A DNA stretch of 64,000 nt from Myxococcales bacterium (GTDB lineage: Bacteria > Myxococcota_A > Polyangia > Polyangiales > Houyiibacteriaceae): assembly GCA_029861865.1 (NCBI GenBank), contig JAOTYL010000016.1, positions 15,633-79,632 of the forward strand, in the 5' to 3' direction. Below the pieces are notes generated by a model. That model made no database searches and had not been told where the DNA came from. It worked only from the letters and a program-made list of their open reading frames with translations. Shown one piece after another: positions 8,916-51,799 of the stretch (the first letter of the stretch is position 1; each line of letters opens with the position of its first letter). Position numbers and translations under genes: made by a program.

Positions 8916-9680
8916 ATGGCCAACTTCGAAATGCCCGTAACCGAGTACATGAGCAGCCCCGTGGAGACAATTCGCATCGGCGAAAGCTTGATCGCAGCCA
9001 ATGAGTCGTTCTCGAAACAAGGGGTATCCGCCCTCGGCGTCGTCAACGATGAAGGGAAGCTCAAGGGTGTCGTTTCGCGAACCGACATCTTGCATGCAGC
9101 CGTTTTCACCGAGGGACAGACGTTCCGAGTGCCAGACCGGCCCGTCGAGGAAATCATGCAATCGCCGGCGATCCAGCTGACTCCCGACGATCCGCTCTCG
9201 GCCGCCGCCAAGGCAATGCTCAAACATCGTGTCCATAGAGTGTTCGTCACGCGCTCGGGGAAGCTGGAGGGCGTGGTGTCGACTCGTGACCTGATGCGTG
9301 CGGTTCGTGAGAAGCGCATCAAGACACCGATCGCCGAGATCGCGTCAAGCTCCGTGGTCAAAGTGAAGGCCGAGGACCCGATTGCACTGGCCGTCGACCG
9401 CCTCGATCTATCGAACAAGCACGGCCTCGTGGTGGTTGAGGGCGACTTCCCGGTGGGTATTTTCGATCAGGTGTGCGCGTTGGAGTCGCGCCGCCTGCCC
9501 CCACAGACCGCCGTCGAGCACGCCATGAACGTCCGCATTCTAATTCTACCTGCCGGCATCGGAATGGGTCGAGCCGCGGCGCAGGCCCTTGGGATGAACG
9601 TGCGCCGAATCCTGATCGAAAACCAACGGGGAGTGACTGGGATCGTAGGTGGATTAGACTTCGCAAGAGTCATGACGTAG
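8916..9680 (+). CDS. CBS domain protein (multiple CBS repeats)
   Basis: VTEYMSSPV, LKGVVSRTD, VHRVFV, GVVSTRD. Confidence 0.85.
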   Translation: MANFEMPVTEYMSSPVETIRIGESLIAANESFSKQGVSALGVVNDEGKLKGVVSRTDILHAAVFTEGQTFRVPDRPVEEIMQSPAIQLTPDDPLSAAAKAMLKHRVHRVFVTRSGKLEGVVSTRDLMRAVREKRIKTPIAEIASSSVVKVKAEDPIALAVDRLDLSNKHGLVVVEGDFPVGIFDQVCALESRRLPPQTAVEHAMNVRILILPAGIGMGRAAAQALGMNVRRILIENQRGVTGIVGGLDFARVMT

Positions 9681-9689
9681 CTGGCTCTG

Positions 9690-9751
9690 CGTCGACCGGT
9701 AACTCGGACCCCGGCGCGGGACGGGCGTGCTCGCAATGGGGCCCCTCGGAA
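9690..9751 (+). repeat. conserved leader preceding a hexamer array (copy 1)
   Basis: cgtcgaccggt-aa-ctcgg...cggcgc-gggacgggcg-tg-ctcg...gaa(cagtg); aligns with 31208-31258. Confidence 0.65.
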
Positions 9752-9859
9752 CAGTGTCAGTGCCAGTGACAGTGCCAGCGACAGTGTCAGCGACAGTGCC
9801 AGTGTCAGCGGCAGTGCCAGCGCCAGTGTCCGTGATGCTGTCAGCACCAGTGCCAGTGT
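9752..9859 (+). repeat. CAGYGN hexamer tandem array (about 18 units)
   Basis: cagtgt/cagtgc/cagtga/cagcga units in strict 6-bp register, three degenerate. Confidence 0.9.
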
Positions 9860-9877
9860 GATCTATCTTGGATCATC

Positions 9878-9955
9878 GTGATTTCCTTTCCGAGGGCCTT
9901 GGACCCCGGGCTTCGCCCTTCTGCGAGGGCCCAAGGCCCTCGGAAAGGAAATCAC
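9878..9955 (+). promoter_or_regulatory. 25-bp perfect inverted repeat whose 3' arm contains the RBS of the downstream gene
   Basis: gtgatttcctttccgagggccttgg (9878-9902) pairs with ccaaggccctcggaaaggaaatcac (9931-9955); inner gggc-ttc-gccc mini-hairpin; ATG at 9958. Confidence 0.85.
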
Positions 9956-9957
9956 TC

Positions 9958-10284
9958 ATGGGACTCATCGTTCAGCAAAAGGCACTCGAGGCCGCGGCGG
10001 GGCTTCAGCCTCTTCTTCCGGTCATCAGAAAGGCCGATAGGGATCTGTTCGACCAGGTGCGACGGGCTATGAATAGCGTGGTGCTCAACATCGCCGAGGC
10101 CGAGGGGAATGACCCGGGAACGGCGAGGGCTCGATTCGCGAGCGCGTGTGGGTCGGCGAAAGAGGTGCGTGCGGGGCTCCAGCTCGCAGCGGCCTACGGC
10201 TACGTCGGCCCGAACCAATGCGCAGAGCTCGACATCGCGCTCGATGAGGTCTGCGCGATGTCGTGGAGACTCTCCGGGCGTTAG
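9958..10284 (+). CDS. four helix bundle protein (23S rRNA IVS / bAvd-like family), paralogue 1
   Basis: 108 aa with family motif DQVRRAMNSVVLNIAEA...F..A.GSAKEV...GY; AAAGGA RBS. Confidence 0.88.
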   Translation: MGLIVQQKALEAAAGLQPLLPVIRKADRDLFDQVRRAMNSVVLNIAEAEGNDPGTARARFASACGSAKEVRAGLQLAAAYGYVGPNQCAELDIALDEVCAMSWRLSGR

Positions 10285-10610
10285 CGTTTGGCCAAACACC
10301 ACGTGATGGCACACACCTCGTCGAGCCTCCGGTCGAGGTGGGTCGCCGTCTCAGACCCGATGTACCCCCAGTCACTCGCGATATGAAGCGCGGCGCGGAC
10401 CTCTTTGGCCGACCCGCAAGCGGTGGAAAACCGGGCCCGCGCATTCCCCGCATCACTCCCCCGAGCCTCCGCAATATTGAGCACCACACTCTGCGCGGCT
10501 CTCTTGAGCTGATCCGCCAGCGCCTTGTCCTGCCTCCGCACCACCCGGAGGAGCGGAGCGACTTCCTGCACCACCTTGCGGGCTCGAATGTAAACGTTCT
10601 CTGATCCCAT
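10281..10610 (-). CDS. four helix bundle protein (23S rRNA IVS / bAvd-like family), paralogue 2
   Basis: 109 aa, DQLKRAAQSVVLNIAEA...GSAKEV...GY; AAGGAG RBS; stop codons of the two paralogues overlap. Confidence 0.88.
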   Translation of the reverse strand: MGSENVYIRARKVVQEVAPLLRVVRRQDKALADQLKRAAQSVVLNIAEARGSDAGNARARFSTACGSAKEVRAALHIASDWGYIGSETATHLDRRLDEVCAITWCLAKR

Positions 10611-10616
10611 GATTGA

Positions 10617-10693
10617 ACTCCTTGTGTTGGGTTTGGGCCCTGTTGGCCTCACCCCGCTGTGGTCAACAGGGCGCAAACCCAAAAACAAGGAGT
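10617..10693 (-). promoter_or_regulatory. about 32-bp imperfect inverted repeat whose 3' arm (minus strand) contains the RBS of paralogue 2
   Basis: actccttgtgttgggtttgggccctgttggcc (10617-10648) versus ggtcaacagggcgcaaacccaaaaacaaggagt (10661-10693). Confidence 0.8.
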
Positions 10694-10701
10694 CCCTAGG
10701 A

Positions 10702-10893
10702 CAGTGCCAGTGACAGCGACAGTGACAGTGACAGCGACAGCGACAGTGACAGCGACAGCGACAGTGACAGTGACAGTGACAGTGACAGTGACAGTGCCAG
10801 CGCCAGTGCCAGTACCAGTGCCAGCGACAGTGCCAGTGCCAGTGCCAGTGCCAGCGACAGCGACAGTGCCAGTGTCAGTGCCAGTGCTCGTGC
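10702..10893 (+). repeat. CAGYGN hexamer tandem array (about 31-32 units)
   Basis: Uninterrupted 6-bp periodic cagtga/cagcga/cagtgc units following ctagga. Confidence 0.92.
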
Positions 10894-10905
10894 CAGGTCA
10901 GTGGC

Positions 10906-13900
10906 TCATAGCCACTTTTGGATGTGCATGCCTAGTGTTCCTGCGCGCATCTTCGTTCGTTGTCTGGGTCGCACTCGGAACCTCAGCTCGTGTCCACCGC
11001 TCGCTTCGACCGTGAAGGCTCCACGCCAGGTGCTTCGGTCTTCTTTCCCCTTAGCCTCGAACGGCACCAGGATTCGCGATGGCCTGTCGTGCGTCCGTGC
11101 TCCGAAAGCAACCACCGCTTCCACGTCGAGTTCCCGCGCGTCGAGGCCCGGGTGGTGGAGGGAGAGCTCGGCTGAAACCGTGGTGCCGACGATGAGCTCG
11201 TCTGCGCCGAGGCCTCCGAACCGCACGCTTTCCATTGCGATCTCGCCCCAATGCGCGCGCAGCCTCTCGGCGAGATCGGCCAGCGCAAAGAGTGGCCGGT
11301 AGTTCGATTCGCGGAGCGCCACCGCGTCTTTCATGGCCGGTTCGTAGAACATATCGGCATAGTCGGTCACCATTCGGCGAGATGAAAAGCGAGGAATGAT
11401 ACTTGCCATACTGGCCTTCATTCGCTCGACCCATTCGAGCGGTATGCCGGCATCGTTGCGCCGCTTGTAGGTGGGAAGAATTTCCGACTCAAGTAAGGCC
11501 ATCGTGACGGCGCGATCGTATGCGCTCGGGTCGTGGATGGTCGTTGCCGGCAAGTCGATGACCCAGCCATTGTCACCCTCGTACCCCTCGATCCACCAGC
11601 CGTCGTCGACGCTGAGGTTCAAGCAGCCGTTCATCGCGGCCTTCATGCCCGAAGTACCGCTTGCTTCGAGCGGGCGGGTTGGAGTGTTGAGCCAAACGTC
11701 GCACCCGGCGACCATTCGGCGGGCTTCGTCGATCGAATAGTTCTCGATGAAGATGACTTTTCCGACCAAATCGGGGTGTTTGGTGGCTTGATAGACCCTC
11801 TGCAGTAGCGCCCTCCCTTGCCCGTCGGCGGGATGTGCCTTGCCGGCGTAGATCAGCGTGGCCCCGGGGTTTCCATCGACGAGCTTGGCCAGCCGTTCGG
11901 GCTCGCTGAGCAGAAGGTCTGCACGTTTGTAGGGTGCAAACCTGCGCGCGAAGCCGATGAAGAGTCGATCCTCGTCGAGTTGGGCGAGAATGTCCTGAAG
12001 CACCGAAAGGTTTTCGCGACGACGAGTCCACGTCTTGGTGAGGTGGTCCTTGAGCCAGCCGACGAAGTCCTGCCGAAGCTCCTGATGCACGCTCCATACC
12101 TCGGCGGGGTCATGGTGACGCAGCCACTCCCACCGGTCGGCGTCTTCGATCGAATCGCGCCAGTTTGGGCCCATCTCCCGCTCGGCCAATCGCTGCCATC
12201 GAGGAGCAAGCCAGCTTGGGACGTGGACACCGTTTGTGATGCTGGTGGACGGGACGTCGTCGGCGCTGTCCATATCGGGGTAGAACTGGAGAAACATCTG
12301 GCGGGCGACCTCGCCATGCTTCGCACTTACTCCGTTGATGCGCCCGGAGCTCCTGACCGCCAACGCAGTGGTGCCGAACTCGTTGGGCTTCCCTTGGGGG
12401 GTGTGGCCCATCGCCATGAGGCGGGGCCAGTCTAGTCGCAGGACGTGCTCGAAACGTGACAAAAAAGGCCGCACCATCTCCTCGGGGAAATGGTCGTGCC
12501 CGGCCGGCACGGGTGTATGGGTCGTGAACACGGTCGTGTTGCGAATGTACTCGAACGCTTCCTGCGAGCGCAGGCCGTGCCGTTGAATCAGGTGCGCGGC
12601 ACGCGCGATGAGCAGAAAGGCGCTGTGTCCCTCATTCATGTGAAACACGTCCGGATCGATGTCGAGTTCGGTGAGGAGCTGGTAACCTCCGAGGCCGAGG
12701 ATCATCTCCTGCCGCAGCCGATGTTCCGGGTCACCGCCGTAGAGTCGATTGGTGATCGCGCGGTCCTCTGGCTTGTTGTCCGAGATGTCCGTATCGAGCA
12801 AGAAGAGCGGGATCCGCCCGACCTTGAGCTGCCAGGCTTGCGCGTGCACGGGGCCTGTCGGCAGGGGGACGGTCACCTTGAGGGGCGCATAGGCGCCTGC
12901 CATGACTTGCTCGAAAGGTGGGTTCTGAAAGTCGTTGTTGTCTCCCCAAGCTTCCTGTTGACCGTCACGATCGATGAACTGGTGGAAGTAGCCCTCGTGG
13001 TAGGCAAGCCCAACAGCACACAATGGCAGGTTCAAATCGCTGGCGGCCTTCAGATGGTCGCCTGCGAGGATCCCGAGGCCACCGGAGTACAGCTTGAGAA
13101 AGCCTGCAATCCCAAACTCCATGCAGAAGTAGGCGATGCGAGGCTCCGGCATCTCGGTCGAGCTCGGCAAGCGCTGATGAACTTCTTCGACACTGCGCAC
13201 GTACTCCGCGTCCATCGCGAGGTTCATGAGCCTGTCTGGCTTTACCTGGTCGAGAAGCGCGTGCGGGTTCTCCTCGAGCTCGAACCAGAGGGTCGGGTCG
13301 AGACGCTTGAAGAGCGCGGCCGCCTCGGGATGCCAGCGCCACCATAGGTTCGCCGCGATGTCTTCTAGAGGTTGCAGCTCGTCCGGGAGGGCGTTGGCGA
13401 CGTTGAAAGTCCGAGTGTACGGCGGTGCCTCCTCTCCTTCGGCGCGGGGTAATCGTTCGACCAGGCCGAAAACGCCCGAGGTGTCAGTCGCGGCCGGCAT
13501 CGACGGCACGCTGAGTCGCTCCATGGGGAGCTCTTTTCGCCTGGCCGCGCCTGCCGCTAATGCCCGGTGATGCGCGTCTTCGTAGTGGTCCATGAAGTTG
13601 GACCACGCGGTCAACGCAGCCGTCGCGAGGGATGCCCGCCGCAGGGACTCCCGATCCTCTGGAGAGAGATCGATGAATTCGACCAGAGCCGCAGTCAGGG
13701 TGTCGCTCACTTCATCGAAGGGAACCCCCTCTCGTTTGAGCACACGAACCCCGGTTCGATCACCGTCTCCCTGGCGGGCGACCCACCGACCAAAACCCGC
13801 GCGATCCGTCGTGATGGCTGGGACGCCAAAGGCTACAGCCTCAAGCGGGGTGTATCCCCAGGGCTCGTAGAACGAGGGAAAGACACCGAGGTCTGCACCG

Positions 13901-15159
13901 GGCAGGAGGTCCCAGTACCTCTGGCGGATCAGCGGGTCGGTGCCGTCGAGGTAGATCGGCACGTGAACGACGTGTACGCGGGCGCCCGGATTATTGTCGA
14001 AGCTGAGCGCGTTCAACTTATTGGTGATCGGGTCGTTGGCCTCATCGACGAGGTCGTGTGTGCATCGAAGCGGCGGCCCCGCAGAACCGCCATGGGCCCT
14101 GTCCCAGAGTTGTCGCTTTGGCTCGGCATGTCCGGCAGGCAGCATCGCGTACAGGATGATGCGCTTCCCATCTCGGGACTCGAGCTCGGTCCGTAACTTT
14201 GCAGACGCATTCAGATAAACGTCCACGCCCTTGTTGATGTATTCGTAGCGTCCGGCCAGCGCGAAGATCAGCGTCCCGTCTCGATCGTAGGTGTCCCCGG
14301 TGGTCAACTCCGCGAGCTTGAAAAGCTCGTCTCGCGCCCGTGTACGCTGCTCGGGCATAACCGGACGAGCGCCAAAACCATTGGGCAAGATCACATCCGG
14401 TTTGCGCTTGAGAAGATGGTCGCATTCGAGGGCAGTGATCTCACTCACCGTCGTGAACACGTCTGCCGCATGTGCGGCAACCTTTTCCATCGAGTGCTTC
14501 GACGAAACCTGGAGCTCCTTGGCCGCGGCTTCCACGTCTACGCTCGGCAGAGACTGGTAGAAGTTTGGGTCGGCCTTTCGCCCCGCGAGGGAGCGTCCGA
14601 GCATTGTGGCGTGCGTGGTGAACACAGTGCCGATCTCGGGCGCTGCGGTCTTCAGGTGAAGGATGGCAGCGGCAGACATCCACTCGTGAGCTTGGACGAT
14701 CGCTGCTTGGCGAGCTGGAAGAAGAAATCGATCACGAATGTGCTCGATCACCATCCCCGTACCGTGTGCGAACAACACCGGGTCGTAGTAGTCCCAGGCG
14801 CCAAAGAGCGAATCGAGCCCGAACTCTTCCCAGTAGCGGCCGAGGATTTCGTCTTTGCGCTGGTAGAGACGCGACTGGTTGATCAGAAGGCAGCGAGGCT
14901 CGCCTGGTACCAGCCAACGCCCCATCACGACTCCGACCTCATGGTCTTTGAGAGAGTCGAGTAGCTCGGGGTCCCACACGTCCGCGCGGAACTCTGGAAC
15001 AACCCCTTCGGCTCTCGGAATGTCCGGACCAAAAGTGATATATCCGTCTTCGCCGTGTCTCTCCTGAACCTCGCGAACCCGGCTGGCCAAGACGGTGTGA
15101 ATCCCGCCGACCATGTTGCAGACCTCCCACGAGATCTCGAAGAACGCGGGCTTGCTCAT
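10906..15159 (-). CDS. glgP: fusion of GT3-type glycogen synthase-like domain and alpha-glucan (glycogen) phosphorylase
   Basis: N-half FEISWEVCNMVGGIHTV, FTTHAT, GRYEYINKG, YEPWGYTPLE (GT3); C-half AYFCMEFG, YSGGLGILAGDHLK, EASGTSGMK (PLP lysine, GT35). Confidence 0.92.
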   Translation of the reverse strand: MSKPAFFEISWEVCNMVGGIHTVLASRVREVQERHGEDGYITFGPDIPRAEGVVPEFRADVWDPELLDSLKDHEVGVVMGRWLVPGEPRCLLINQSRLYQRKDEILGRYWEEFGLDSLFGAWDYYDPVLFAHGTGMVIEHIRDRFLLPARQAAIVQAHEWMSAAAILHLKTAAPEIGTVFTTHATMLGRSLAGRKADPNFYQSLPSVDVEAAAKELQVSSKHSMEKVAAHAADVFTTVSEITALECDHLLKRKPDVILPNGFGARPVMPEQRTRARDELFKLAELTTGDTYDRDGTLIFALAGRYEYINKGVDVYLNASAKLRTELESRDGKRIILYAMLPAGHAEPKRQLWDRAHGGSAGPPLRCTHDLVDEANDPITNKLNALSFDNNPGARVHVVHVPIYLDGTDPLIRQRYWDLLPGADLGVFPSFYEPWGYTPLEAVAFGVPAITTDRAGFGRWVARQGDGDRTGVRVLKREGVPFDEVSDTLTAALVEFIDLSPEDRESLRRASLATAALTAWSNFMDHYEDAHHRALAAGAARRKELPMERLSVPSMPAATDTSGVFGLVERLPRAEGEEAPPYTRTFNVANALPDELQPLEDIAANLWWRWHPEAAALFKRLDPTLWFELEENPHALLDQVKPDRLMNLAMDAEYVRSVEEVHQRLPSSTEMPEPRIAYFCMEFGIAGFLKLYSGGLGILAGDHLKAASDLNLPLCAVGLAYHEGYFHQFIDRDGQQEAWGDNNDFQNPPFEQVMAGAYAPLKVTVPLPTGPVHAQAWQLKVGRIPLFLLDTDISDNKPEDRAITNRLYGGDPEHRLRQEMILGLGGYQLLTELDIDPDVFHMNEGHSAFLLIARAAHLIQRHGLRSQEAFEYIRNTTVFTTHTPVPAGHDHFPEEMVRPFLSRFEHVLRLDWPRLMAMGHTPQGKPNEFGTTALAVRSSGRINGVSAKHGEVARQMFLQFYPDMDSADDVPSTSITNGVHVPSWLAPRWQRLAEREMGPNWRDSIEDADRWEWLRHHDPAEVWSVHQELRQDFVGWLKDHLTKTWTRRRENLSVLQDILAQLDEDRLFIGFARRFAPYKRADLLLSEPERLAKLVDGNPGATLIYAGKAHPADGQGRALLQRVYQATKHPDLVGKVIFIENYSIDEARRMVAGCDVWLNTPTRPLEASGTSGMKAAMNGCLNLSVDDGWWIEGYEGDNGWVIDLPATTIHDPSAYDRAVTMALLESEILPTYKRRNDAGIPLEWVERMKASMASIIPRFSSRRMVTDYADMFYEPAMKDAVALRESNYRPLFALADLAERLRAHWGEIAMESVRFGGLGADELIVGTTVSAELSLHHPGLDARELDVEAVVAFGARTHDRPSRILVPFEAKGKEDRSTWRGAFTVEASGGHELRFRVRPRQRTKMRAGTLGMHIQKWL

Positions 15160-28893: not shown

Positions 28894-28896
28894 GGA

Positions 28897-29028
28897 CAGT
28901 GACAGCGACGGTGTCAGCGACAGTGTCAGTGTCAGTGACAGCGACAGTGCCAGTGTCAGCGACAGTGTCAGCGACAGTGTCAGCGACAGTGTCAGTGTCA
29001 GCGTCGGTGTCAGTGTCAGTGCCAGTGA
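28897..29028 (+). repeat. CAGYGN hexamer tandem array (22 units)
   Basis: Begins TAG-gga-cagtga right after the ligase stop codon. Confidence 0.92.
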
Positions 29029-29726: not shown

Positions 29727-29801
29727 TGGAGCGGGTGAAGGGATTCGAACCCTCGGCCTCGACCTTGGGAAGGTCGCACTCTACCACTGAGTTACACCCG
29801 C
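29727..29801 (-). tRNA. tRNA-Gly (anticodon CCC), CCA encoded
   Basis: GCGGGTG acceptor stem, D-loop AGTGGTA, anticodon arm CGACC-TTCCCAA-GGTCG, GGTTCGAATCC, ends TCCA. Confidence 0.97.
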
Positions 29802-29859: not shown

Positions 29860-29961
29860 CCGCTGGCACTGACACTGACACTGACACTGACGCTGACGCT
29901 GACGCTGGCACTGACACTGACACTGACGCTGACACTGACGCTGACACTGTCCCTGACTCTG
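29860..29961 (-). repeat. CAGYGN hexamer tandem array on the minus strand (15 units plus 2 degenerate)
   Basis: Plus strand acactg/acgctg/gcactg units; follows the SPFH gene stop. Confidence 0.9.
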
Positions 29962-29965
29962 CCCC

Positions 29966-30784
29966 CTAGCGTGTGTGGACGAGCGGCAAGCCGTTCGGGC
30001 CCACAGGAATGTACACCGTCGTGTGGTTCGGAGAGTTTGCCATCGTCCGCTGCGCCTCGATCGCTTCGTGTTGCAGGTAGTTCGCGGTCAGCGTTTCGTT
30101 GATGATCTTCTGCGCCGATGCGATTCCTTTGGCCTCCTCGATTCGAATCTCTGCATCGCGCTGGGCGATCTCTTTTTGGGTTGCCTTCTCCTCGAGCAAC
30201 TGCTTTGCCGCGAGCTTCTTTTCGACTGCCTGCGAAACGACCGGCGGATAATCGATGTTTCCAACGGCCAACCGGACCACCTCGAAGGGGGTCTTCTCGA
30301 GGTACGTATTGAGCGCAGTCTCTATCTTCTTAGCGATGGTTTCACGCTCCGCCTTGAGCTCTCGGCTCGCATACTCCTGAACGGATTCGCGAACGATCGT
30401 TCGAAACGGCTCTTTCAAGAAACGCAGGTACCAATTTCCGGCGCCAAACTGCTCGACGACAGCTTGGACCTGGCCTTGCTCGACCAGAAGGACGGCGTGG
30501 ACTCGGAAGGCCACGTTGAGATCGTCTTTAACGAGGATGCTGAACTCCTCGGTGTAGGTCGTCGGTCGTGTGTCGATGTTGATGATGCGGTTTCGAAAAG
30601 CGCTGATGCCGTAGTTGCCGGGTCCTTTGACTGCGCCACGAAACCCACCTTCACCGATCATCCGGGGGTCTTCGAAGACATAGCCTTCGTGTCCGGCTGG
30701 GGCGTGGGGATTGGTGCAGCCGGCTACTCCTAAGCCGGTTGAGATCAAAACCAGGGTAAAAAGGGCGATGATTGGGCCGCGCAT
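29966..30784 (-). CDS. SPFH/band 7/prohibitin-family lipoprotein
   Basis: VAGC lipobox, PAGHEGYV, AVEKKLAAKQ, EAKGIASAQ, LTANYLQHEAI; AAGGAGG RBS before ATG 30784. Confidence 0.88.
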   Translation of the reverse strand: MRGPIIALFTLVLISTGLGVAGCTNPHAPAGHEGYVFEDPRMIGEGGFRGAVKGPGNYGISAFRNRIINIDTRPTTYTEEFSILVKDDLNVAFRVHAVLLVEQGQVQAVVEQFGAGNWYLRFLKEPFRTIVRESVQEYASRELKAERETIAKKIETALNTYLEKTPFEVVRLAVGNIDYPPVVSQAVEKKLAAKQLLEEKATQKEIAQRDAEIRIEEAKGIASAQKIINETLTANYLQHEAIEAQRTMANSPNHTTVYIPVGPNGLPLVHTR

Positions 30785-30810
30785 GATGGCCTCCTTTATG
30801 GTATTCGTGT

Positions 30811-30890
30811 GATGTTTATATATAAGTATATACTCATATGTCGTCAATAATAATTCGCCATATTCATATACTTTTGTATATACTCGCACA
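30811..30890. promoter_or_regulatory. AT-rich divergent promoter/operator with repeated GTATATAC palindromes
   Basis: GTATATACTC at 30826-30835 and 30876-30885 (50 bp apart); TTATATATAA at 30816-30825. Confidence 0.6.
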
Positions 30891-30910
30891 CTAACCCGAG
30901 AGGAGGGGCG

Positions 30911-31258: not shown

Positions 31259-31378
31259 CAGTGACAGTGACAGTGCCAGCGTCAGTGCCAGTGCCAGTGT
31301 CAGCGCCAGTGCCAGTGCCAGTGCCAGTGCCAGTGACAGCGCCAGTGTCAGTGACAGCGTCGGTGTCAGCGGCAGTGA
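31259..31378 (+). repeat. CAGYGN hexamer tandem array (20 units)
   Basis: 6-bp periodic array between two convergent stop codons. Confidence 0.92.
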
Positions 31379-34363: not shown

Positions 34364-35029
34364 ATGGCGCATTGGAAGCATCGAGACGAAGCGAAGTGGA
34401 AGAACTTCGAGTTCAATCAGCCTTATGCGAAGGGCCTCAAGCGACTCAAGGAAGAGGTGCTCGCCAAGACCGACTTCGACCCGGCGACCCTGTGGCAGTG
34501 GGGGACTATGCAGGCGATGGCGCTCATCGAGATGCTCAAAGAGAACGAGCGTACGTTTGGCGAGGCTGGCCAGAAGGCGGCGTATCGAGCTCTTCGCAAG
34601 ACGGGCTACGACGTAGGGCGGCAGATCCTCGACGGCACGACCATTCCCGAGGACATGACCGACACGGAGTTCACGTCGTTCTACGCAACCGTGATCAACC
34701 GCATCGCGTACGCATCGCTCGAGGACCCGAAGATCGACCGCGAAGGCCAAGCAAGCTTTCACATCCTTTGGTGCCCACATCAGGATCATTACGAGGCGTT
34801 TGACTGCCGAGTACAACGGTATTTCGTGCAAGGCATGATCGATGCGGCCCAAGACCATGCCGACCGATTTGGATTCCAGGTTCGGTTCGATTCCACCATC
34901 CCTGCCGGTGCGGAGACCTGCCACTTCACGATGTGGGACGCGGATGATCAAGAGCGTGAGCAATGGGAGCTATTGACCGAGAAGCTGGAAAAGAAAGCAC
35001 TCCAAATCGTGCGAGACGAGCCTAGGTGA
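34364..35029 (+). CDS. hypothetical protein, V4R/ATC-hydrolase-like fold
   Basis: GGAGG RBS; WCP...DCR...TIPAGAETCHF Cys pattern resembling V4R/ATC hydrolase-like domains. Confidence 0.6.
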   Translation: MAHWKHRDEAKWKNFEFNQPYAKGLKRLKEEVLAKTDFDPATLWQWGTMQAMALIEMLKENERTFGEAGQKAAYRALRKTGYDVGRQILDGTTIPEDMTDTEFTSFYATVINRIAYASLEDPKIDREGQASFHILWCPHQDHYEAFDCRVQRYFVQGMIDAAQDHADRFGFQVRFDSTIPAGAETCHFTMWDADDQEREQWELLTEKLEKKALQIVRDEPR

Positions 35030-35131
35030 TAGCGCGGGGGCGGTGGGGCGGGACCAACTGAGGCCGCAGGCCGTCTAGGTGATAGCGCGGGGGCGGTGGG
35101 GCGGGACCAACTGAGGCTGCAGGCCGTCTAG
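35022..35131. repeat. 53-bp G-rich tandem duplication delimited by CTAG
   Basis: Units 35022-35074 and 35075-35127 differ at one base; CTAG at 35022, 35075 and 35128. Confidence 0.92.
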
Positions 35132-51775: not shown

Positions 51776-51799
51776 TCGCTGGCACTGACGCTGGCACTG
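51776..51799 (-). repeat. short CAGYGN array on the minus strand (4 units)
   Basis: tcgctg-gcactg-acgctg-gcactg just after the stop of the 51802 gene. Confidence 0.6.

Follow-up and report, generated by a model that had tools for sequence, protein, structure and literature searches.

Do the tandem hexamer arrays, long hairpins and small four-helix-bundle (FHB) genes that lie together between two convergent genes of a Myxococcales bacterium form a recurring unit? A sequence-only reading of the stretch analysed here (64,000 nucleotides of contig JAOTYL010000016.1, referred to as the window) had inferred that array, hairpin and FHB gene may be a functional or mobile unit, for example one in which a protein binds the repeats and regulates itself through an RNA switch. 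This core inference was supported, as further copies of the unit exist in the genome and elsewhere in the genus, and diverged versions of it occur across the phylum. The example mechanism remains a proposal only, without binding data. The claim of a recurring unit was also refined, since the genes form a pair here but relatives also have gene B alone, and since the association is limited to one subclade of PF05635 and does not include canonical members.

Gene A (9958..10284, + strand) and gene B (10281..10610, - strand) code for FHB proteins of 108 and 109 aa, which scored 50.3 and 64.7 bits against PF05635 and 49 and 63.5 bits against TIGR02436, all above the curated cut-offs of 33.8 and 24 bits, respectively. 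The two proteins share 54 identical residues out of 91 (59%, E 2e-39, BLASTP). The genes are convergent and their stops share two bases, with TAG at 10282-10284 on the + strand and TAA from 10281-10283 on the - strand; the two paralogous convergent genes with overlapping stops that had been claimed were confirmed, coordinates included. The cassette is situated between two convergent protein-coding ORFs, a CBS-domain gene (8916..9680, + strand; PF00571, E 5.8e-32) in the same direction as gene A, and a glycogen-related fusion gene of 1417 aa (10906..15159, - strand) in the same direction as gene B. Reading of the latter's translation, without a family search, suggested a glycogen synthase-like start and an alpha-glucan phosphorylase-like later part, and its C-terminal 300 aa served as synteny probe. 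The claimed convergence of the CBS and glycogen genes held, and their sigma-54 dependence remains a claim only. A sigma-54 motif was looked for by eye only, without any tool, in the leader and the array, where the GG-N10-GC spacing was off by one base. A consensus promoter and terminator scan, uninformative for this phylum, returned no terminator-like site and one promoter-like site, within the CBS gene.

The AlphaFold2 model of the gene B protein (a prediction, not a solved structure; pLDDT 94.8) exhibited an up-and-down bundle of four helices, at residues 3-27, 29-49, 54-80 and 86-108. Its best fold matches in Foldseek were 2GSC and 2RLD at TM 0.85-0.91, and it matched Avd with TM values of 0.82 to 4DWL and 0.84 to 8UB7; 2GSC, 2RLD and Avd are pentameric. 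By our own count from the printed sequence, the gene A protein has a net charge of about zero, unlike the basic Avd. Pfam searches of both proteins returned PF05635 only, with no transposase or HUH/Y1 domain, and no family of the PADLOC anti-phage defence models matched A or B (0 for each). We also observed that the cassette is without a catalytic domain. Both proteins are under purifying selection, strong in every copy, with a dN/dS of 0.14 for gene A over 21 paralogue pairs and of 0.07 for gene B over 15. Between cassette copies of the genome, dS is about 0.45-0.49 with a range of 0.26-0.72, and therefore no recent movement has taken place in this genome.

The long hairpin claimed directly upstream of each gene was confirmed by fold energies and shuffles. 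Hairpin 1 (9878..9955, + strand) has 29-nt arms that are 97% complementary, and the 111-nt segment 9860-9970, which includes a small 5' hairpin, folds at -65.5 kcal/mol (z -7.0). Hairpin 2 (10615..10695, - strand) folds at -58.3 kcal/mol (z -6.2), and none of 200 shuffles folded as stably as either one. The 3' arm of hairpin 1 carries the Shine-Dalgarno sequence of gene A, and that of hairpin 2, in the minus-strand sense, carries the one of gene B. Compensatory changes were present in 9/17 pairs of hairpin 1 (31 sequences) and in 14/15 pairs of hairpin 2 (58 sequences), showing that such changes maintain both stems. The stretch 9859..9877 (+ strand), a leader ahead of hairpin 1 that forms the left end of the cassette, is kept in all seven genome copies and in relatives. 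Rfam, run on 9300-11300 only, gave nothing at gathering threshold, the sub-threshold hits being microRNA-precursor look-alikes (22-34 bits vs 52-197); no rRNA was found within 9300-11300, and the claim that rRNA is absent held for this interval only. In G028 and G032 the array unit is seemingly echoed in the hairpin loop, an observation made by eye, without a test against chance, on which we rest no claim.

The CAGYGN arrays claimed with 18 and about 31 units were recovered by regex scans and by Tandem Repeats Finder. The left array (9751..9858, + strand; 9751-9834 in Tandem Repeats Finder) has 14 clean units and extends, degenerate, to about 18, and the right array (10700..10890, + strand; 10700-10886 and 31.2 copies in Tandem Repeats Finder) has about 31. 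Both read CAGYGN on the + strand with the same polarity, so that they are direct repeats and not mirrored, and the array part of the claimed symmetric cassette failed. A four-unit CAGYGN pattern matched 73 times in the window vs 0.00 expected (100 shuffles). Arrays without an FHB gene are also found in the window, at 28895..29027 (+ strand, between two genes), at 29860..29961 (- strand, adjoining tRNA-Gly(CCC) at 29727-29801) and at 31259..31378 (+ strand, with a MITE-like leader before it), together with a short four-unit run at 51776..51799 that has no FHB gene adjacent. A truncated copy of the MITE-like repeat, a palindrome of about 150 nt when complete, lies at 9683..9750 (+ strand, left arm only) and was common to copies c6a and c10 in a 7-copy alignment. 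The motif recurs in array flanks and the repeat often abuts arrays; genome-wide it has 46 right-end and 58 left-end copies, with an array directly after 14 of the 46 right ends. The structure of the array RNA does not exceed that of shuffled sequence (z -1.1 for the left array, +2.9 and +1.9 for the two strands of the right one). That the arrays are coding sequence was ruled out by their position between convergent genes and outside long ORFs, and by their length differences between copies and species; 23/124 arrays overlapped stop-to-stop ORF calls, which are crude, and these overlaps are unresolved.

The genome of this bacterium (G000) holds seven intact A/B pairs and four fragments, with arrays on 13/13 observable cassette flanks at a polarity constant relative to gene A. 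The proposed enrichment of arrays near FHB genes held, as 17 of the 124 arrays are at most 350 nt from an FHB segment, a zone of 0.28% of the genome in which about 0.35 arrays are expected. The other 107 are more than 350 nt from any cassette sequence, and since arrays also neighbour the MITE-like repeat, they are therefore not exclusive to the cassette. Host genes run in the same direction as the adjacent FHB gene on 9/11 flanks (crude gene calls). The G000 copies form one clade (support 97), and on the copy tree the genome labels need 35 changes vs a shuffled mean of 56, showing that copies cluster by genome. The cassette yielded no recombinase, no terminal inverted repeat and no target-site duplication, the last not being assessable inside arrays; its inverted repeats comprise the hairpins and the pair of paralogous genes with their start regions, and none is located at the outer ends. 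In public reads, error-free contigs from two runs of different studies cover cassette-specific pieces, which shows only the presence of the locus in the samples concerned; the contigs obtained were fragmentary. Two array-to-array skip joints (9745->10857 and 9824->10808) were considered as empty alleles and not counted, being unreliable with one contig each; their sides are only 28 and 25 nt, within repeats. In the single RNA run, arrays and flanks were covered (90-95% likeness) but the cassette was not, so that the run is uninformative on expression.

A survey of 80 loci from related MAGs revealed an array upstream of gene B in 52/57 loci and upstream of gene A in 28/30, compared to 2/53 for a control window, and array polarity was identical in 147/147 arrays. 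In relatives, 31 pairs, 25 solo-B genes and 11 undetermined forms were counted, and a downstream array at a distance of up to 300 nt accompanies only 8 of the 25 solo-B genes. Among 25 genomes of the genus, 18 contain arrays and FHB genes, three contain neither, two contain arrays only (G019 and G020, without any PF05635 match) and two contain FHB remnants only. An empty site between the CBS gene and glgP in relatives had been suggested as a check. The CBS gene has orthologues in 23/24 same-genus genomes, and in the 17 same-genus loci with both genes the spacer is 6-254 nt and holds no FHB gene. The closest relative examined, G014, has four cassette sites, and G000 lacks a cassette at each. 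One site has syntenic flanks on both sides, and its spacer in G000, of about 40 nt, contains only about three degenerate units; for the remaining three sites a single flank was matched, which is weaker evidence of absence. Species differ in whether a cassette occupies an orthologous site, and where it is missing, no more than a few repeat units are found.

Beyond the genus, FHB homologues with 35-50% identity in other Myxococcota families sit in period-6 arrays with different units. In one genome, G036, three subtypes of FHB protein each come with a different unit, consistently so in 3/3 loci, in 4/4 loci and in one two-gene locus, and six further phylum-level genomes display the same pattern; each FHB lineage has its own hexamer unit. 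One clade (SH-aLRT 99) includes every one of the 17 array-linked proteins, and 0/13 proteins outside it are array-linked; 4/21 of its members show no array in the flanks examined. Canonical PF05635 genes of the same phylum had arrays at 0/14 high-scoring loci. The flanking arrays are direct in our locus vs inverted in G091, G045 and G088; one recombination model does not fit all lineages. A metagenome scan with a single G091-type protein found no relatives.

On balance, and with a modest preference over the alternatives below, we read the locus as one copy of a multi-copy gene cassette, mobile on evolutionary timescales, with cognate hexamer arrays. Within the PF05635 FHB family, the cassette falls in a distinct subclade of Myxococcota, and its unit is a hexamer array, a long hairpin with the ribosome-binding site, the FHB gene and a second hexamer array, present here as an inverted duplication, hence the convergent genes A and B. 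How this unit would work and spread (protein binding, RNA processing, read-through, recombination route) is inferred, without experiment or expression data. From its position at the 3' ends of convergent host genes, the cassette would be transcribed by read-through, and each hairpin would block translation of the FHB gene until its stem is opened or cut. Cutting of the stem by RNase III would, by analogy, parallel the 23S rRNA intervening sequences that carry the PF05635 family. The FHB protein is expected to be a pentameric barrel like Avd, although no pentamer was modelled, and to bind the cognate hexamer repeat, the hairpin nucleic acid or both. The flanking arrays would provide the homology for gain and loss by recombination, leaving solo arrays much as solo LTRs are left.

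Several known systems resemble this unit in part. The PF05635 domain is functionally uncharacterised and has been reported in rRNA insertions of CPR bacteria (PMC11270868). 23S rRNA intervening sequences with a PF05635 ORF, of the Leptospira and Coxiella type, share with the cassette the protein family and the combination of a small FHB gene and a long RNA stem in a transcribed region. Moreover, inverted arrays that could pair as a long stem surround the gene in G091, G045 and G088, resembling the intervening-sequence stem cut by RNase III, the cleavage being inferred here. Unlike intervening sequences, the cassette lies between protein-coding genes with no rRNA in 9300-11300, its hairpins are upstream of each gene and do not enclose it, and it is multi-copy with tandem hexamer arrays. 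Apart from Avd, PF05635 proteins are functionally uncharacterised (PMC11270868, PMC10053308); Avd is a positively charged pentameric barrel, and the RNA of diversity-generating retroelements (DGRs) has Avd-binding elements (10.1101/2023.10.23.563531, preprint). The four-helix-bundle fold is common to both, but the cassette has no reverse transcriptase, template repeat or variable repeat, its score in the Avd equivalog model is far below the cut-off, and the sole reverse transcriptase of the genome is unrelated and not common to relatives.

REP/REPIN sequences with RAYT genes are dispersed intergenic repeats, mostly at gene 3' ends, with a gene flanked by its own repeat. The cassette gene is likewise flanked by its own repeat, which is dispersed between genes and lies mostly at their 3' ends, the repeat co-varies with the gene lineage, and the two co-occur at the genome level. 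It differs in that the protein is a 108-aa helical bundle without HUH/Y1 transposase features, the repeats are tandem hexamers and not palindromic REP units, and the gene is multi-copy. Solo LTRs, foldback elements and En/Spm-type subterminal repeats are also known, in which termini of short tandem motifs bind an element-encoded protein. Here too the termini are built of short tandem motifs, and direct flanking repeats could recombine, delete the interior and leave a solo repeat; unlike in these elements, neither a transposase or reverse transcriptase nor a terminal inverted repeat or target duplication was found in the cassette, and its host is bacterial. The STRR heptamer repeats of cyanobacteria are short tandem intergenic repeats at many loci per genome, as are the present arrays, but they have period 7 vs period 6, and are not known to have an associated gene. 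We found no published description of the cassette in the literature searched, most subscription journals and supplements being outside its scope.

A host regulatory system, and not a selfish element, is a possible alternative. Situated at gene 3' ends, the arrays would then act in cis between convergent genes, as insulators, as terminators or as sites of RNA stability, and the FHB proteins would be their trans-acting binders, with genes placed inside arrays for autoregulation and multi-copy for dosage. In favour of it, 34 of 92 classified arrays (37%) are convergent intergenic vs 22% of gene junctions, and only 10/92 are in divergent regions vs 22% (crude gene calls in both cases); many arrays begin within a few bases of a stop codon. 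The strong purifying selection in every copy and the genome-level co-occurrence of arrays and FHB genes also agree with it, and an array RNA no more structured than shuffled sequence is as expected for a binding platform. Against it, loss of a core regulator with arrays retained, as in G019 and G020, is not expected, nor is the absence of both in three same-genus genomes. The two most closely related species examined do not share cassette positions, copies cluster by genome as for amplifying elements or concerted evolution, and one genome contains three cognate protein/array types. We consider unlikely a merely passive link, in which the arrays are recombination-prone satellites that accumulate any DNA and the cassette is a passenger whose protein is unrelated to them. 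It is favoured by the arrays adjoining the MITE-like repeat here and other short elements in G011, G012 and G021, by the 7/46 contig ends that fall inside arrays, by most arrays being solo and by the lack of a catalytic domain. It does not fit the persistence of the association across families and at protein identities as low as 35-50%, the shift of the unit sequence with FHB subtype even inside one genome, the fixed polarity of all 147 arrays, or the canonical PF05635 genes of the same phylum, none of whose 14 loci is in arrays.

The idea of a retroelement relic, in which the FHB protein would be an Avd-type accessory of a DGR or of another reverse transcriptase that makes or uses the arrays, is very unlikely and largely refuted. 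The fold does match Avd and the DGR ribonucleoprotein (TM about 0.8-0.84), and the one reverse transcriptase of the genome lies between two arrays with identical left flanks (C6:85 and C6:6022). The window itself has no reverse transcriptase, as had been claimed, the sole RVT_1 match of the genome being on another contig. That enzyme belongs to class UG4 (E 3.5e-106) and is carried by a mobilisable element that also has a relaxase and NikA. Among the remaining 19 genomes of the genus with arrays, none has a close homologue, and this reverse transcriptase was rejected as the array maker; two genomes have weak matches (E 1e-11 to 1e-12, 31-34% identity), one of them, G013, with a single array match. 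Moreover, NF033474 (Avd) scored 17.1 bits vs a cut-off of 80 for B and did not match A, no template/variable repeat pair was seen, nor was a long direct repeat pair in the cassette.

The mobile cassette with cognate arrays remains the reading that we prefer. A bolder version of it is possible, in which the array-linked FHB proteins are sequence-specific binders of six-base repeats that propagate or maintain their own satellite arrays, within a self-insulating module. On the repeat side, the partnership would correspond to that of REPIN and RAYT, but without a transposase; on the stem side, the cassette would, by virtue of its hairpin or inverted-array stems, insert as a module that insulates itself, a generalised form of the 23S rRNA intervening sequences. 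If true, it would provide the first function of PF05635 outside diversity-generating retroelements and a new class of bacterial repeat-plus-gene element.

PF05635 proteins are widespread, and a role is known only for Avd. The present finding gives one subclade a testable partner, a cognate six-base tandem repeat together with a conserved hairpin holding the ribosome-binding site, for which natural specificity swaps exist, three protein/repeat pairs of a single genome among them. In an uncultured Myxococcota lineage, it also accounts for the presence of more than 100 intergenic satellites per genome, as well as for assembly breaks. Should the proteins drive the arrays, the partnership of repeat and gene would be of a new kind; should the arrays drive the spread of the cassette, genes would have a route of mobility that needs no transposase.

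The sequence-only reading had described array, hairpin and four-helix-bundle (FHB) gene at this locus as a symmetric cassette, perhaps a recurring functional or mobile unit. The elements themselves were confirmed. Gene A (9958-10284, + strand) and gene B (10281-10610, - strand) exceed the curated cut-offs for both PF05635 and TIGR02436; their stop codons have two bases in common, and 54 of 91 aligned residues are identical between their proteins. Hairpin 1 (~9878-9955; -65.5 kcal/mol, z -7.0) lies directly upstream of gene A and hairpin 2 (~10615-10695; -58.3 kcal/mol, z -6.2) directly upstream of gene B; none of 200 shuffled sequences folded as well as either, and each 3' arm contains a Shine-Dalgarno sequence. 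Outside the hairpins are the left (9751-9858) and right (10700-10890) arrays, tandem repeats of the hexamer CAGYGN, for which a four-unit pattern gave 73 matches in the window against 0 expected. The claimed mirror symmetry failed for the arrays: both read CAGYGN on the + strand and are therefore direct repeats, not mirror images. Inverted repeats inside the cassette were limited to the hairpins and to the paralogous genes with their start regions, and no outer terminal inverted repeats were found in the cassette at this locus. On the left the cassette adjoins a CBS-domain gene (+ strand) and on the right a gene (- strand) for a 1417-aa protein, named from its translation without a family search, which we take to be a glycogen-related fusion; each FHB gene thus follows a host gene that runs in the same direction.

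Several other features were observed in the window. Between the CBS stop codon and the left array, separate from the cassette, lies a truncated copy (9683-9750, left arm only) of a MITE-like palindromic repeat of ~150 nt. The source genome has its right-end motif 46 times and its left-end motif 58 times, and beyond 14 of the right ends a CAGYGN array with the same polarity starts within 40 nt. Upstream of the CBS gene, the gene at 8423-8872 matches the Host_attach / bacterial eRF1-like family 12 (E 3e-40, 4e-35). A tRNA-Gly(CCC) (29727-29801, minus strand) is ~60 nt from a solo array, one without an adjacent FHB gene, at 29860-29961. A ~120-nt sharply A+T-rich stretch with TATA-like repeats (30780-30910; surroundings 62% G+C) separates two divergent ORFs, and a 53-nt unit is repeated 2.1 times with 98% identity at 35022-35131 (Tandem Repeats Finder score 213).

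The source genome assembly (4.23 Mb, 23 contigs) gave 17 PF05635 matches, which tblastn resolved into seven intact convergent A/B pairs and four fragments (C1:4159, C3:21698, C5:93428 and C23:301161, by contig). Thirteen of the 14 flanks of these pairs carried an array, always on the same strand as gene A; the 14th is lost to a contig end. Of 124 arrays with four or more clean units found by regex across the genome, 17 were within 350 nt of FHB sequence, where ~0.35 would be expected, as this zone makes up 0.28% of the assembly. Of the 46 contig ends, seven lie within arrays. Alignment of the seven copies shows similarity that starts ~30 nt ahead of hairpin 1 and stops at the base of hairpin 2, with arrays following on both sides; beyond these the flanks are unrelated, except for the MITE-like motif in three copies. 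The genes are 85-91% identical in nucleotides between copies, with dN/dS of 0.14 for gene A (21 pairs of copies) and 0.07 for gene B (15 pairs, leaving out the C5 copy at a contig end), and dS of 0.26-0.72. The copies are thus old and constrained, and none is recent.

Elsewhere in this genome, arrays at C6:85 and C6:6022, with identical 70-nt left flanks, enclose a ~5.9-kb segment (C6:1-6300, L148), outside the window, that encodes a UG4-class reverse transcriptase, a MobA/VirD2 relaxase, a NikA-like protein and a 305-aa ORF with an H-x-H motif and no Pfam hit. It looks like a mobilisable element that either integrated at arrays or has them as its borders.

The association was also found among relatives, uncultured Myxococcota/Polyangiales MAGs from many studies, including some chromosome-level assemblies. 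In a profile of 24 same-genus genomes and the source genome, 18 had FHB hits together with CAGYGN arrays, three had neither (G003, G008, G022), two had arrays without FHB, as confirmed with the Pfam model (G019, G020), and two lacked arrays and had no FHB beyond remnants or distant hits (G010, G015). Related genomes are not independent samples, and repeat-flanked genes can drop out of fragmented MAGs. From relatives, 80 loci were retrieved with protein B. An array (at least three units within 300 nt) lay upstream of gene B in 52 of the 57 loci with enough sequence and upstream of gene A in 28 of 30, compared with 2 of 53 in a control window 801-1100 nt away, and polarity relative to the genes was identical in all 147 arrays counted. 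Of the loci, 31 were classed as pairs, 25 as solo B genes and 11 as undetermined; only 8 of the 25 solo B genes had an array within 300 nt downstream.

Empty sites, which the sequence-only reading had proposed to look for between the CBS and glycogen genes, were found in 17 same-genus loci with both genes, where the spacer is 6-254 nt long without an FHB gene; a few contain between two and four repeat units, or else a different short repeat element. Four cassette loci of the closest relative (G014) were compared with the source genome, and the cassette is absent from the latter at all four. At the one site with both flanks syntenic, the source genome has about three degenerate units in a ~40-nt spacer (C5:128267-128308); at the three others, with one syntenic flank each, next to that flank is an array of four units, four units with a MITE-like repeat, or hardly anything. 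Among 69 B proteins placed on a tree, those of the source genome, six in all, form one clade (support 97). Genome labels required 35 changes, where shuffled labels needed 56 on average and none of 200 shuffles came as low. This clustering could reflect lineage-specific amplification or concerted evolution; the tree rests on few columns and has many unresolved forks.

Two further observations concern the CBS-glycogen spacer. In three loci (L041, L048, L049, from G021, G011, G012) a ~130-nt GC-rich repeat element, its core resembling the hairpin 1 loop by eye, occurs once or twice, bordered by short arrays. In G012 a 3.9-kb insertion at this junction (C13:212482-216382, L153) carries a divergent solo B (66-67% identity) just downstream of the glycogen gene, and may be either an old shared insertion or an independent one.

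Pair-keeping changes on both sides were seen in 9 of 17 predicted pairs of hairpin A (31 sequences) and in 14 of 15 pairs of hairpin B (58 sequences), which shows that the hairpins are selected structures. The Shine-Dalgarno sequence and its spacing to the ATG are nearly invariant. Both leaders have a common 12-nt motif just before the stem, and the start regions of the two genes are 84% complementary as an inverted repeat, which would fit an ancient inverted duplication of one hairpin-gene unit. An Rfam search of the locus gave no family at threshold. The modelled gene B protein has four helices (pLDDT 94.8, 27-row alignment). In structure it most resembles XCC0516 (2GSC) and BT_0352 (2RLD), each of which was deposited as five chains; Avd and the DGR ribonucleoprotein come next. 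A sequence search found only 2GSC (E 1.3e-4). Avd is a positively charged pentameric barrel, and DGR RNA has Avd-binding elements (10.1101/2023.10.23.563531). PADLOC gave no match for A or B. The single reverse transcriptase of the source genome was rejected as the maker of the arrays, to which it is not linked; it has no close homologue in the other array-bearing genomes of the genus.

FHB homologues with 35-50% identity, from three further families of the order, are likewise flanked by period-6 arrays, of different units: CCGYGR-type at 7 of 7 FHB loci in G028, CGGNCT-type at 4 of 4 in G032 and, in G036, each with its own FHB subtype, CGGATT-type (3 of 3 loci), GGGAAC-type (4 of 4) and GGCGTT-type (one locus with 2 genes). 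No array was found at the single FHB locus of G033, at a contig start. All 21 upstream regions in the other-family set fold at or below -57 kcal/mol, without shuffle control, and in several the stem includes the ribosome-binding site. The stems of hairpin 2 in this genus and of the G028 hairpins have a G/T-rich run (GGTTTGGGTT-type) in common; being kept across families at ~50% protein identity, it indicates a stem conserved in sequence and pairing. A degenerate seven-unit pattern matched 398, 3070, 294 and 98 times in four other-family genomes rich in FHB hits, 47 times in a fifth with one B hit (G026), and 0-25 times in the eleven without a hit to protein B, one of which (G040) has 5 PF05635 matches; the reversed-pattern control matched the same arrays and was uninformative. 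In G036 a GGGARC six-unit pattern matched 222 times, at no fewer than 17 distinct loci, and at least five FHB genes adjoin arrays of this unit; solo arrays are thus present there as well.

A phylum-wide draw of 81 genomes gave 26 with PF05635 and 28 loci. No hexamer array lay within 500 nt of the 14 loci with a Pfam score of at least 75 bits, one of which has an 18-nt repeat (2.4 copies); 8 of the 14 lower-scoring loci had one. In a 34-protein tree, the array-linked proteins, 17 in number, all fall in one clade with SH-aLRT 99, together with 4 that lack arrays in the available flanks; none of the 13 proteins outside the clade has arrays. In G091, G045 and G088 the arrays on the two sides of the gene run in opposite orientations and so enclose it like a long potential stem. 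A metagenome scan with a single G091-type protein found no relatives.

Several points weigh against the proposed working of the cassette. No FHB sequence lies within 350 nt of most arrays (107 of 124), 14 of the 46 right ends of the MITE-like repeat also have an array beside them, G019 and G020 keep arrays without FHB, and array orientation varies between lineages; the source genome has no recent copy, and the cassette carries no enzyme for movement. Arrays are favoured at convergent junctions (34 of 92 classified, against a 22% background) and avoided at divergent ones (10 of 92); a host function could explain this, and so could tolerance of arrays at 3' ends. When folded, array RNA showed no more structure than shuffled sequence (left array z -1.1; right array z +2.9 and +1.9, by strand), which is compatible with a binding platform and proves nothing.

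As the most likely way for the cassette to work, we infer that A and B would be transcribed by read-through from convergent host genes, which are co-directional with the adjacent FHB gene on 9 of 11 flanks by crude gene calls. The stems may gate translation of the FHB genes, or be cut, and the proteins may bind their own repeats, stems or both, for which there are no binding data. The arrays would provide homology for gain and loss of the cassette, leaving solo arrays behind. In the open-access literature searched, whose supplements may contain relevant tables, nothing was found that describes FHB genes associated with tandem hexamers. The results support the inference of a recurring unit and extend it to other copies, relatives and other families, with its mechanism open. 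The cassette, which we rate outside the known kinds of element, is a conserved, cognate, multi-copy unit that has been gained and lost over evolutionary time.
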